Virus record (IMG/VR): IMGVR_UViG_3300037467_000583
Coordinates: 25,342 to 89,341 of that record
Source: a virus
Lineage: Duplodnaviria; Caudoviricetes
Reading direction: 5' to 3' (one strand)
Length of the DNA stretch: 64,000 nucleotides
Below the pieces are notes generated by a model, which saw only the letters and a program-made list of their open reading frames with translations, was not told where the DNA came from and searched no databases. The translations under genes and the position numbers were made by a program. Shown piece after piece: positions 6,941 to 26,381 of the stretch (its first letter is position 1; each line of letters opens with the position of its first letter).

Positions 6941-7897
6941 TCATACTTCAATCTCCAATTTCTCACAAAGTTTCTTCACATCAAGCCTGTCACCTTCCCA
7001 CCTACGCATGTGCACGCAATCGGCGTACATCTGCCAGATAGTGAGCCAATCTGCTTTGTGACGAGAATCATCCCATGCAGTGTAGTAGACTTCTTCAGGA
7101 TACCACTCGCGGTACTTATCCACAACAGCCTGCACAGCTTCCTTGTCCGTCGTACAATCCTTAAGAAGCTTATATGCGCCCTTCTCGCCAAACTTCTTCT
7201 TAGCAATCTCGGACGGCTTATAACAATCTGCTGGGTCGCCAAAGAGCATTTGGAAATAGGCAAACACCCTACCGTAACCTTTTACCTCGTCCTTGTCATT
7301 CAAATACAACTTACCAAATCCATCTACAAACTCAGGCTCCTCCATGTGCAGCCAGTTGAACTGCCAGCCGGGAGTGGCGTTATCGTCTTTATCGATTGTT
7401 ACAGACACTACGTATTCTTTCTTGCGATAGCCTTGGTACTTGTAGGCTGCAATCAGATCATCAGCTTCGCCCAGAGCCACCTCTGCGTTGTGCTTGTCAA
7501 TAAGATATTGCTTGGCTTCTTCAAGATTAATCGGCTTAGAAATGTTACTGCGATTGTCCTTGTACTGAGTTGGCAGCGGAAGATGCTTACGAAAATTGCC
7601 ATCGCTTGGACCTGAAACAACAATGTGATATGCATCACACTTAGTCTTCTGCAAAATCATCTTGAGCATTTGCTTCATCGCATAGATGGTGTTGGCAATT
7701 GGTTCAGGTGTTTGTACGGGTTTAAGATCGTAATCACCCGCTTCGCTGCCTGCCCACTCCTTGAACAGTGTAACAGTGTCGAACTCAAGCTCGCTAAGAT
7801 TTTCTTTGTGTGTGGCGATTACGCTCCGCTTCTCCGTAGCTGCTGCACAACGGTATGCAAGCAAGTCGCCATCAATCACCGCTAGTCGTTCTGTCAT
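6941..7897 (-). CDS. 5'-3' exonuclease (T7 gp6/T5 D15-like)
   Basis: VIDGDLLAY, YKDNR, EADDLI, TIDKDD, GDPADCY motifs; start at MTERLAVID. Confidence 0.9.
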   Translation of the reverse strand: MTERLAVIDGDLLAYRCAAATEKRSVIATHKENLSELEFDTVTLFKEWAGSEAGDYDLKPVQTPEPIANTIYAMKQMLKMILQKTKCDAYHIVVSGPSDGNFRKHLPLPTQYKDNRSNISKPINLEEAKQYLIDKHNAEVALGEADDLIAAYKYQGYRKKEYVVSVTIDKDDNATPGWQFNWLHMEEPEFVDGFGKLYLNDKDEVKGYGRVFAYFQMLFGDPADCYKPSEIAKKKFGEKGAYKLLKDCTTDKEAVQAVVDKYREWYPEEVYYTAWDDSRHKADWLTIWQMYADCVHMRRWEGDRLDVKKLCEKLEIEV

Positions 7898-22627: not shown

Positions 22628-22945
22628 TTACTTCTGCTTCTTCCGACGAGCATACTTCGTCACGCCTACCAGACCAAACAGGCCGAAGCCGAGGCCTGCC
22701 ATTGCCAGCGAATCCGAGTTGTCTTCAGCTTGAGCCTTCGGAGCCGAGACGGACACATTGCAGCAGCCCATTGCAGCGACGTATGGAGCAGAAACATCTT
22801 CAGCGTTCACCGAAGGAGCCGACACTTCAGAGTCATTGATATAGGGCGAAGACACGTCAGATGCTACAGCAGATGCCGAAACAGCTTGTGCAAATGCTGC
22901 CGAAGCGAACATAAACAGGAACAGAGCGGTGATAACATTTTTCAT
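22628..22945 (-). CDS. Exported protein with VS(A/S)P repeats and a PEP-CTERM-like C-terminal anchor
   Basis: Signal peptide ...ASAAFA; repeats DVSSPY, EVSAPS, DVSAPY, VSAPK; tail SLAMAGLGFGLFGLVG...ARRKKQK. Confidence 0.7.
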   Translation of the reverse strand: MKNVITALFLFMFASAAFAQAVSASAVASDVSSPYINDSEVSAPSVNAEDVSAPYVAAMGCCNVSVSAPKAQAEDNSDSLAMAGLGFGLFGLVGVTKYARRKKQK

Positions 22946-23967: not shown

Positions 23968-24278
23968 CCCACCACCTCCGTCTCAACATCTTCATAAGTA
24001 TCATTCCACACAAGAGGAATAACGTCACCTTGATCTTGCTTGAACTTCGCAGTACGAACACTAGCAATCTTACCAATCCCTTCGATGAAAGATTCTTCGC
24101 CTTGGGCAAGTTGCCGTGCTGCAAATGCAAACAAATCGTTCTGCTTTTGCTCTAGATTGGTCCCTTCAAGCTCAAACATATATGATTCAAATTCGTTGAT
24201 AAAAGATTGCTTAAGAATTTCCTCGTGAATTTCGATTTCATACTCTTTTTCGGTTGTCACTCGTACGGTCTTTTTCAT
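23964..24278 (-). CDS. Hypothetical protein
   Basis: Co-oriented, overlapping neighbours. Confidence 0.6.
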   Translation of the reverse strand: MKKTVRVTTEKEYEIEIHEEILKQSFINEFESYMFELEGTNLEQKQNDLFAFAARQLAQGEESFIEGIGKIASVRTAKFKQDQGDVIPLVWNDTYEDVETEVVG

Positions 24279-25186
24279 TTGTTACCATCCTTATATTCAA
24301 CCAAACCTTGTTCCACTTTCTCCATAAACTTGTCATAGAAATCTTCGTGGAACAGGTCCATTACGTTGTAATAATTTTCCCACGCAAATTCGCGCCACCA
24401 CCCGGAGGCGATCGATGTACAGCACTTCATCAGTGCCATTTCAAAAGCCTCTCGCGGAGTCTTCTTACCCGGAAACACAGACAAGCTGCGCTCAATTGCG
24501 AGCACCATTGCTTCCTCTACAACAGAGTACAATTTCACCTCGTCAGAGCACTTCTCAAACATCGCCTTAGAGCACATCACCTCAGCAGTGTTAGGCTTGA
24601 AATACTCGTAAGCTGGCCTGTCCAAGTGCTTGACAGCCTCGTGCACCGCGTCATGCTGGTAGACTTGCACAACACCAGTAACATTGCTATCAAAGAAATC
24701 TGCACGAGAAACGTTCAGCTTGGGTGCGCTGTTAGTGTACGTTTCCTTCTCCCGCTGCTTGAAGAACTCTTCATGCTCCGGTCGAATCTTAGCACCAAGC
24801 TTGCGCATGAACAAGATGTCGTCAAGAGTTTTCTTGAAGTGAGGAGAATCTTTTTTGTATCGATGCGAAAGTTTTAGCAAGTACAGCATATCAAGTGAAG
24901 GCACAAGCCAATCATTACCAGTCACGCCCCAATCATCGTGCTTCCTGATAAAATTGTTAAGACGCTCTGCCATGCTGTCTTCCCAGCATACCTCAGCCTC
25001 AATAATGGTGCCTTCATCATTGCGCATGTAGATGGAACGTCCCTCGTTGATCGGATAGCACACTTTGATGCCGACCTTCTGCCGAAACTTCATAATTTCA
25101 TCGTACGCGCCTAAGATATCAACATCAGCCGGGACACGACCAATATCTACGTGATGCGCCAAAGCCATGCTACCAATCAAAATCAT
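24275..25186 (-). CDS. Uncharacterised protein with N-terminal Pol-beta-type nucleotidyltransferase motif
   Basis: LIGS-x14-DVD; helical C-terminal region with QHDAVHE. Confidence 0.55.
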   Translation of the reverse strand: MILIGSMALAHHVDIGRVPADVDILGAYDEIMKFRQKVGIKVCYPINEGRSIYMRNDEGTIIEAEVCWEDSMAERLNNFIRKHDDWGVTGNDWLVPSLDMLYLLKLSHRYKKDSPHFKKTLDDILFMRKLGAKIRPEHEEFFKQREKETYTNSAPKLNVSRADFFDSNVTGVVQVYQHDAVHEAVKHLDRPAYEYFKPNTAEVMCSKAMFEKCSDEVKLYSVVEEAMVLAIERSLSVFPGKKTPREAFEMALMKCCTSIASGWWREFAWENYYNVMDLFHEDFYDKFMEKVEQGLVEYKDGNK

Positions 25187-25203
25187 GTCATGTTTCCTTT
25201 ACA

Positions 25204-25644
25204 TTAGCAATAAGAAGTCAGCCAGTCCGACACATCGGATTCCATATTTTCTAGCAGGGCATATAGTTTTCCTACTGCTTCGTTATCATTAATGGCATCG
25301 TTGTCCACTTCATCAATTTGAACGGTGTACGGATCGCCGTAAGGATGGTAATCACTTTGACGGTCATAGTACGGCAACGTGTACGTGACACCAGACACTT
25401 CACTCACAAAGCTTGCCGCCGACAGTAGGTCGTAAGCCCGTGATGCCACGTCATCTACGTTGCCATCAAAATCATCATCAAGAAGTTCTTCAACAAGCTT
25501 CTTGCCCTCTGCAATCTTCTCAGCGATAAACTTAGACGCACCTTGACGAATGCTATTACGAGCTTGCTGCATCTCTTTTTGCAGAGCATCATGCTTAGCT
25601 TTCATCTCGTTCAGATTTACACCATCAATAATGATTTCTTGCAT
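25204..25644 (-). CDS. W-x-x-S-S-x-x-C family paralogue 4 (ends DWLTSYC)
   Basis: Start MQEIII; helical acidic protein; shortened terminal motif. Confidence 0.7.
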   Translation of the reverse strand: MQEIIIDGVNLNEMKAKHDALQKEMQQARNSIRQGASKFIAEKIAEGKKLVEELLDDDFDGNVDDVASRAYDLLSAASFVSEVSGVTYTLPYYDRQSDYHPYGDPYTVQIDEVDNDAINDNEAVGKLYALLENMESDVSDWLTSYC

Positions 25645-25657
25645 TTTATTTTCCTTG

Positions 25658-25882
25658 TTAGCAATGTGCAGAGCTTGCACGCCAATAAACATAATCACTG
25701 TGGTTGTGCCCGCCTTTGGCTTCGTCTGGTAGTTCCAAATCAACGCACACGTTCAAACCGAACGTCTTCGCCAGCAGCACAGCCTCTCGATACAAGCGTT
25801 GAATTTCTTCTACGCGATTTGAAATCTCCGTGATGGCTGTGTGGTCATCTTGTGCCACATCCCATGCACTGAATTCTTCCAT
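25658..25882 (-). CDS. W-x-x-S-S-x-x-C family paralogue 3 (ends YWRASSAHC)
   Basis: Start MEEFSAW after GAGG SD. Confidence 0.7.
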   Translation of the reverse strand: MEEFSAWDVAQDDHTAITEISNRVEEIQRLYREAVLLAKTFGLNVCVDLELPDEAKGGHNHSDYVYWRASSAHC

Positions 25883-25889
25883 AATATCC

Positions 25890-26153
25890 TCAGCAATTGT
25901 ACGACGACGAGTTCCAATCGTTGTGCAGTCCATCAACCGATTCAATAGCATCAGCCAGAACGCCGTAAGAGCCACCTAGCTTCACTTCGATGCCAGTCTT
26001 CTCGACAACATCCTTAATTTCTGCCAGTAACACTTTAATTTTCTGTACGCGCTCTGCCACGCGAGCGTTTGCCTCTTTTGTAGAAATCACTTCCTCGCCA
26101 GCTTTAGCCAGCAGTTCATCCAGACGTTTCTTGCTAATAGTTACCGTGCTCAT
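25890..26153 (-). CDS. W-x-x-S-S-x-x-C family paralogue 2 (ends DWNSSSYNC)
   Basis: AAGGAG SD; helical. Confidence 0.75.
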   Translation of the reverse strand: MSTVTISKKRLDELLAKAGEEVISTKEANARVAERVQKIKVLLAEIKDVVEKTGIEVKLGGSYGVLADAIESVDGLHNDWNSSSYNC

Positions 26154-26174
26154 GTTTTCTCCTTAAATAAAATT

Positions 26175-26381
26175 TTAGCAACCTTGCGACGAGGGTTGCC
26201 AGCCAGCATCACCGTAATAACGTGCGTCTTCGTTACCTTCGTAGTACCCGCCCATACCGTATGCTGGGCTAAAACTAAAGCCAAGTTTGTGCTCATCTGC
26301 TACACTCTCAGCCTCATTCAGTGCATCGTAAGCCTGCTGTACCAACTCTGCAATCTTTGCTGCTGCTTCTTGTTTCGTCAT
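26175..26381 (-). CDS. W-x-x-S-S-x-x-C family paralogue 1 (ends GWQPSSQGC)
   Basis: AAGGAG SD; helical. Confidence 0.75.
   Translation of the reverse strand: MTKQEAAAKIAELVQQAYDALNEAESVADEHKLGFSFSPAYGMGGYYEGNEDARYYGDAGWQPSSQGC

Follow-up and report, generated by a model that had tools for sequence, protein, structure and literature searches.

Many large phages carry a conserved, phage-restricted two-part module, in which an array of small proteins ending in a W-x-x-S...C tail (tail proteins) is encoded upstream of an enzyme that sequence and structure prediction place among the Pol-beta nucleotidyltransferases, closest to the tRNA-modifying toxins MenT1, MenT3 and MenT4 (AbiEii clan). The module is described here from a 64,000-nt stretch of DNA (the window; positions 25,342 to 89,341 of the 89,341-bp IMG/VR virus record IMGVR_UViG_3300037467_000583, Caudoviricetes, completeness estimate 74%), where five tightly packed minus-strand genes at 24275-26381 encode tail proteins a, b, c and d and then the enzyme. 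We propose, with a probability of roughly one in three, that the enzyme nucleotidylylates or phosphorylates the serine of the tail.

The four small proteins end in GWQPSSQGC (a), DWNSSSYNC (b), YWRASSAHC (c) and DWLTSYC (d), just as a preliminary description had read them from four consecutive minus-strand open reading frames (ORFs). The window has 1131 stop-to-stop frames with 30 or more codons, and exactly these four have an ending of the form W..S.{1,3}C, with about 0.16 expected from composition. The motif had been given as W-x-x-S-S-x-x-C; the shared Trp, Ser and Cys stand, the second Ser is not general, and the better definition is W-x-x-S, then one or three residues, then Cys. Two main tail lengths occur among 168 distinct tail proteins of related loci, W-x-[S/P/A/T]-S-S-x-x-C (109) and W-x-x-S-x-C (48). 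Failure of the motif to persist in orthologues had been named beforehand as a reason to abandon the idea; instead, all 157 six- and eight-residue tails have Ser at W+3, never Thr, between variable flanking positions. The residue before the Trp is most often Gly, and 93% of the 168 proteins are acidic. In searches by profile, made independently of the motif expression, 79 of 80 homologues are motif-terminated, as are 145 of the best 150 representative clusters, and Ser stands at W+3 in 150 of these 150. The Cys is the last residue in about 97% of the family; in a few members, chiefly of distant lineages, one to three residues come after it, so that a free Cys carboxylate is usual, not obligatory. 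The tail has two invariant side chains, those of the Ser and the Cys, at a distance of two or four residues. In Pseudomonas phage vB_PpS_SYP, the gene next upstream of a canonical tail gene (L084:4631-4987) has an internal motif (..MWESSSGC..) followed by 16 further residues and may be a decayed or extended tail-gene copy.

Resemblance among the four proteins extends beyond the tail. Proteins a and b are related by BLASTP (E 7e-5), and in profile-profile comparison the a type matches the c type (E 6e-12, probability 97.5%) and, over a helix-strand core, the d type (E 2e-6). These comparisons agree with the initial description of the four as tandem paralogues and indicate true paralogy, not mere convergence at the tail. 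The helix-strand core and the C-terminal W-x-x-S-x(1 or 3)-C are present in all four. Start codons were chosen as those with Shine-Dalgarno sites and with protein lengths agreeing with orthologues. Protein a (68 aa; 26175..26381, Shine-Dalgarno sequence AAGGAG) has the tail W61-Q-P-S64-S-Q-G-C68 at 26178-26201, and protein b (87 aa; 25890..26153) has W80-N-S-S-S-Y-N-C87 at 25893-25916. The start of protein c (74 aa; 25658..25882) was corrected to the ATG at 25882, and its tail, W67-R-A-S-S-A-H-C74, lies at 25661-25684. Protein d (146 aa; 25204..25644, start corrected to the ATG at 25644) combines extra N-terminal helices with the shared core and has the short-form tail W141-L-T-S-Y-C146 at 25207-25224, with W141, S144 and C146 invariant in the d-type alignment. 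Orthologues of b in related phages are 53-62% identical, and those of c in two related loci (L007 and L008) have 74 aa and 89% identity. Related phages of about 88 kb have the same gene order, a-b-(c)-d-enzyme, from which it follows that the paralogues are old and that each has been maintained. Genes in the block are spaced 7-21 nt apart, with 17 nt between d and the enzyme gene. Within the five-gene block a search for promoters and terminators gave none that convinces, with signal counts at or below shuffled expectation, and the tail array and enzyme are therefore read as one transcription unit.

The small-protein family has no Pfam model and corresponds to the C-terminal part of PHROG 899, which matches a with E 4e-15 and b with E 3e-4. 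A whole-library search found at least 1043 clusters (50% identity) at E <= 1e-3 and 515 at E <= 1e-10. In the AlphaFold2 model of a (predicted local distance difference test, pLDDT, 87) a 29-residue helix packs against three short strands and there is a YGMGG loop; the conserved Trp lies in the last strand, and the S-S-Q-G-C tail that follows is probably exposed, because model confidence is lower after that strand. Foldseek against the PDB gave no match at E <= 0.001 (the best rows were weak and HU-like), a wide VIA fold search reached Z 3.6 at best, the ESM Atlas gave no named match, and matches in BFVD were confined to uncharacterised phage homologues, including RB69ORF139c. A beta-grasp or ubiquitin-like sulfur carrier of the ThiS/MoaD kind does not fit, as the chain ends in Cys and not Gly-Gly, the fold is a long helix with three strands, and the adjacent enzyme is of the Pol-beta type and not E1-like. 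Most members are the 60-90 aa core only; some have N-terminal additions, namely a WYL_2 Sm-like barrel (PF10902, E 3e-8), SH3/Tudor-like repeats (in jumbo phages) or coiled coils, so that the tail resembles a portable unit attached to bodies of different kinds. An apparent 254-aa fusion (P0327) was set aside, since it looks like a homing-endonuclease gene merged through gene calling.

The enzyme (303 aa; 24275..25186) matches DUF7277 over residues 1-77 (24956-25186; E 4e-9) and DUF7275 over residues 100-279 (24350-24889; E 7e-65), and falls in PHROG 2141, a family of unknown function. The Pol-beta-type GS...DxD motif noticed at the outset lies at 25118..25174, with G5-S6 at 25169-25174 and D21-V-D23 at 25118-25126; outside this span, E63 (24998-25000) is the likely third carboxylate. 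None of the five residues (G5, S6, D21, D23 and E63) varies among 45 homologues. The AlphaFold2 model (pLDDT 94) matches MenT1 (8an4) best, with Foldseek E 6e-5 and VIA Z 10.3 (root-mean-square deviation 3.7 over 149 residues), followed by ANT(2''), MenT4 and TglT/MenT3 (Z 9.0 each), LnuA (Z 8.5) and the H. pylori JHP933-type nucleotidyltransferase (Z 8.2). The alpha-beta-alpha-beta-alpha-beta core of the Pol-beta fold is thus recognised, at Z 8-10, across residues 1-151. In the ESM Atlas the nearest clusters by features and structure are AbiEii, DUF6036, DUF2204 and NTP_transf_5, and a profile search of PDB sequences gave no match. The AbiEii model PF08843 (DUF1814) does not match the window enzyme at E 0.1 or anything else in the phage record, and among the 45 homologues it gives two weak sub-threshold matches (best E 0.0088); the enzyme is therefore taken as a clan-level relative and not as a PF08843 member. 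Past the core, a helical segment contains the conserved K105, R109, K119 and D123, which may or may not be counterparts of the catalytic Lys and Asp that mark the C-terminal motifs III and IV of DUF1814, and the extra helical domain has many invariant His, Asp, Glu and Arg residues. The enzyme reads as catalytically active because GS...DxD is kept in essentially all copies (101 of 103 at the loci and 116 of 120 among database homologues; the few without it are truncated or differ in spacing). In one contig (L046:5397-6909) the enzyme gene lacks the part encoding the N-terminal nucleotidyltransferase region and has an HNH-like homing-endonuclease ORF in its place, which suggests that the gene was split or invaded.

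The two parts of the module travel together. Upstream of 66 of 80 IMG/VR enzyme loci, within 3 kb and on the same strand, there are one to six tail ORFs; in three more loci the tail variants run one to three residues past the Cys, and in three the upstream sequence is truncated. Absence of linkage across genomes was the second outcome named in advance as fatal to the idea, and the observed linkage spans distant phages. At the enzyme loci, 177 of 4134 same-strand (plus) ORFs end in the motif, against 4 of 4565 on the opposite (minus) strand. When neighbouring ORFs were clustered, the tail families (present in 59 and 21 of 81 loci) were the only ones to recur beside the enzyme in different lineages, other neighbours being lineage-specific. 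Two tail genes lie immediately upstream of the enzyme gene in the Ralstonia jumbo phage RsoM2USA and three in the E. coli Phapecoctavirus Mt1B1_P17; in the T4-like Mosigvirus ChristianSchoenbein three tail genes and then one spacer gene precede it, and both parts are present in Pseudomonas phage SYP (a siphophage) and Erwinia phage Hallingskeid. Both the enzyme and such tails are absent from T4. The enzyme is found in 727 sequenced phage records, and a pattern scan of 185,579 prokaryote species genomes returned eight enzyme matches, all of them on contigs of metagenome-assembled genomes, seven with upstream tail genes; bins include Flavobacteriaceae, Chitinophagales, Saccharibacteria and Bacteriovoracales among others, and the bin labels of the sampled contigs cover at least three bacterial phyla. 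Searches from the side of the small protein agree: in records common to both lists, tblastn matches lie 0.5-1.5 kb upstream of enzyme matches, DUF7277/DUF7275 was found within 6 kb in five of six contig look-ups, and the pattern D-G-W-x-P-S-S-Q-x-C-stop gave seven DNA matches, five on known enzyme-bearing contigs and two false, not at ORF ends. The enzyme also occurs without tail genes, and tail genes without the enzyme are rare. One such case is a jumbo-phage contig on which the gene for a tail protein ending in ...EWHPSSQSC lies 0.7 kb upstream of a gene for the anti-CBASS (cyclic oligonucleotide-based anti-phage signalling system) nuclease Acb1 (PF23474; L107:6001-6273 and 7014-7475). No near match to the window DNA was present in the phage collection searched. 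Database names for both families are limited to "hypothetical", "uncharacterized" or DUF, and a literature search found no paper on either part, including DUF7275 and DUF7277.

This linkage bears on whether the tail proteins could act alone, for example as acidic decoys or inhibitors that put the Ser/Cys tail into the active site of a host enzyme, with the nucleotidyltransferase gene adjoining them as a fellow early accessory gene. The acidity of 93% of the members, the location of the genes in early accessory regions and the copy beside the Acb1 gene, with no enzyme gene within 6 kb, are in keeping with independent action. Adjacency and shared strand nevertheless persist across phages without other common neighbours and in bins of at least three phyla, and T4 is without both parts, so that chance co-location is no explanation; we regard independent decoys as improbable.

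In the proposal that we favour, the enzyme would use a nucleoside triphosphate to place a nucleotidyl group (or a phosphoryl group, as in MenT) on the hydroxyl of the tail Ser. This would make the tail an acceptor tag common to an array of small acidic partners, and the differing bodies (plain helix-sheet, coiled coil, SH3/Sm-like heads) would direct the modified proteins to different targets early in infection. We infer contact between tail and enzyme, this chemistry and a role for the Cys. Modification of the Ser is favoured because a strictly invariant, apparently exposed Ser is found on otherwise divergent proteins, because the enzyme is predicted to be an intact hydroxyl-directed transferase, because protein modification has precedent in this enzyme class, and because the small genes depend on the enzyme gene. 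In HepT-MntA (HEPN/MNT, type VII toxin-antitoxin) the acceptor is a Tyr in a HEPN RNase. CitX and MdcG, which act on the acyl-carrier proteins CitD and MdcC, are nucleotidyltransferase-type transferases that use a phosphodiester to attach a group derived from a nucleotide; the acceptor is a strictly conserved Ser of the small acidic carrier. That Ser lies inside the fold, the carriers have neither such a C-terminal tail nor a terminal Cys, and no match to them in sequence or fold was observed. Adenylylation of HepT by its partner MntA has been described (PMC7641770); the likeness is that a minimal Pol-beta nucleotidyltransferase modifies a linked protein partner, which for the phage module is our proposal, and the difference is that the phage tail proteins have no HEPN domain or known fold, the candidate acceptor being the tail Ser. 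MenT1 and MenT3, for their part, can phosphorylate an active-site Thr or Ser next to the nucleotide that they hold, upon binding of the small antitoxin (PMC11375011).

Several observations weigh against modification of the Ser. The near-invariant terminal Cys is explained neither by it nor by any rival model; some 10% of the enzyme loci lack a recognisable tail gene; and the tail gene beside the Acb1 gene is on a 438-kb contig with no enzyme within 6 kb. The nearest solved relatives of the enzyme act on RNA, extending tRNA 3' ends with nucleotides (PMC7450476, PMC11375011). Phage RNA repair sets (T4 Rnl1/Pnk; PHA02142-type RNA ligases) recur as neighbours of the module and in one case are fused to the enzyme, an association that is partial. 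The fusion is a single ORF (L115:6001-7893; P0201, 630 aa) that combines DUF7277 and DUF7275 with an RNA ligase domain and an OB domain of the PHA02142 type and is immediately preceded by two tail genes; it comes from one 10.5-kb contig, and an assembly or stop-loss artefact is possible. RNA ligase or polynucleotide kinase genes adjoin the module in several lineages (L085, L092, L110, L112 and L113). An RNA ligase is encoded no more than 6 kb away at just 11 of 80 loci, and the approximately 74%-complete record of the window's phage, where a DNA ligase is nearby, gave no RNA ligase match. The P0201 fusion and the repeated neighbours point to an RNA substrate, instead of or besides protein. In Erwinia phage Hallingskeid (L085:2203-5234) and a related contig (L113:2731-5756) a tail gene comes right after the genes for T4-type RNA ligase 1 and polynucleotide kinase, and the enzyme gene, with another tail gene in front of it, is 4-6 kb further downstream.

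An RNA substrate would suit a second account, which we consider a serious but tentative alternative, in which the enzyme is a MenT-like RNA or tRNA 3'-end nucleotidyltransferase for host shut-off or RNA repair and the small proteins are regulators like MenA1, which would bind the enzyme and switch it off or on, the tail sitting as a pseudo-substrate in the acceptor site. MenT1-MenA1 (Rv0078A/Rv0078B), of the MenAT/AbiE group, is the best structural match and shares the Pol-beta fold with GS...DxD; its antitoxin MenA1, a 68-aa protein, is likewise a small helical product of the gene directly upstream (PMC7450476), and one MenA1 helix is enough to regulate MenT1 (PMC11375011). Apart from the fusion and the RNA-repair neighbours, the existence of enzyme-only loci and the rarity of the reverse speak for such regulators. 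An antitoxin, on the other hand, does not call for up to six diverged paralogues per genome in fixed order, and what is conserved in the phage proteins is the tail and not the helix. No similarity of sequence or fold to MenA1 (MazE-like) or AbiEi (COG5340, winged helix-turn-helix) was found, the tail proteins having no Pfam match and no PDB fold above Z 3.6, though they may be distantly related. The low count of loci with a nearby RNA ligase, and the lack of a match for one in this record, also tell against regulators of an RNA-end enzyme. The module differs from MenAT/AbiE in about 100 extra residues of the enzyme (DUF7275), in its restriction to phages (with the eight metagenomic contigs as the only matches among the species genomes) and in its partners, which are one to six paralogues marked by the C-terminal W-x-x-S...C tail.

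The pairing of a constant tail with variable bodies also allows the small proteins to be adaptors, the common tail docking on the enzyme and the bodies bringing RNAs or host proteins to it. WYL_2 and SH3/Tudor-like N-terminal modules and the maintenance of paralogues side by side would be expected of adaptors; as no head domain has an established target and most members, being 60-90 aa cores, leave little room for a second binding site, we think this unlikely. Regulators and adaptors are both close rivals of Ser modification and fit the RNA-ligase link and the enzyme-only loci somewhat better than it does. A further reading is a crosslink as in ribosomally synthesized and post-translationally modified peptides (RiPPs): activation and elimination would turn the Ser into dehydroalanine, and its reaction with the terminal Cys would close a lanthionine-type ring. 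This would draw on the two invariant side chains, and the large extra helical domain of the enzyme, with its invariant polar residues, might accommodate such chemistry. The suggestion in the preliminary description that the small proteins are RiPP precursors fits poorly: they are folded domains of 60-200 aa without a leader-core layout, with the Trp inside a beta-strand, RiPP-type enzymes (dehydratase, cyclase or flavoprotein families) are not among the genes that accompany the module, only the nucleotidyltransferase being found with the small proteins across loci, some members continue past the Cys, and a partner family in actinophages keeps the Ser and has no Cys. A crosslink of this kind is very improbable, and it and the independent decoys are less likely than Ser modification, regulators or adaptors. 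A complex prediction for the enzyme with protein a scored 0.02, which is not evidence either way.

The actinophage family comes with distant homologues of the enzyme. These are encoded by phages of Gordonia and Streptomyces and by a Vibrio schizoT4 phage, have no tail genes and are flanked by a second tandem family of small acidic proteins (L090:4103-5300, L092:4247-4925 and L091:3043-3339), which have no Pfam match and contain an invariant Ser three residues past an aromatic residue (G-[WY]-x-x-S-[YW]) and no Cys; the consensus is ..YFRxNG[WY]YxS[YW]xGxxYDG..EV.P..K.IT.[YW]. The records of this family (Gordonia 25, Streptomyces 16) mirror the taxonomic spread of the enzyme there. That an invariant Ser at this distance from an aromatic residue recurs beside the enzyme counts in favour of Ser modification. 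Profile comparison of the tail family with the second family aligned only G-W-x-x-S, not significantly, and no homology between them is therefore claimed.

The module resembles a nucleotidyltransferase with a small linked partner, as in MenAT and HepT-MntA, and there is a real chance of a new kind of tagging system. Specifically, a MenT-like enzyme may load a nucleotide or phosphate onto the portable W-x-x-S...C tag of diversifying small proteins, the modified tails would act on host RNA-end or defence machinery, and actinophages would use the analogous second family as tag carrier; in this full form we hold the idea only tentatively. If true, it would be an enzyme-substrate array of a kind not described in phages. 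Modification of the Ser, if true, would extend to the phage side a MenT/AbiE-type chemistry that is known from bacterial toxins and abortive-infection defence, and could uncover a new protein tag or a new control of tRNA ends in infection. The module is common, also in model and therapy phages (RB69/Mosigvirus, Phapecoctavirus, T4-like phages of Acinetobacter and Klebsiella, jumbo phages), and both parts are nonetheless annotated merely as hypothetical proteins or DUFs. It poses a sharp and cheap biochemical question, namely whether a MenT-type enzyme modifies the tail Ser or the tails regulate an RNA-end enzyme.

Some features of the surroundings complete the description. A link of the module to tRNA genes was set aside as too weak, a tRNA gene being within 6 kb in 18 of 60 loci and 30 kb away in the window. 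One locus (L036:3813-3886) has, 2 kb upstream of the enzyme gene, an ARAGORN-called tRNA whose anticodon is CTA; it resembles an amber suppressor and carries the label tRNA-Pyl. The five-gene block of the window sits inside a long leftward gene block with a DNA ligase, a SleB-like cell-wall hydrolase and ThyX. The SleB-type hydrolase (PF07486; 26724-27140, minus strand), which has a signal-peptide-like N-terminus, is encoded between the DNA ligase and the tail array, and downstream of ThyX a small minus-strand ORF (22628-22945) encodes a protein with a signal peptide and a C-terminal hydrophobic anchor.

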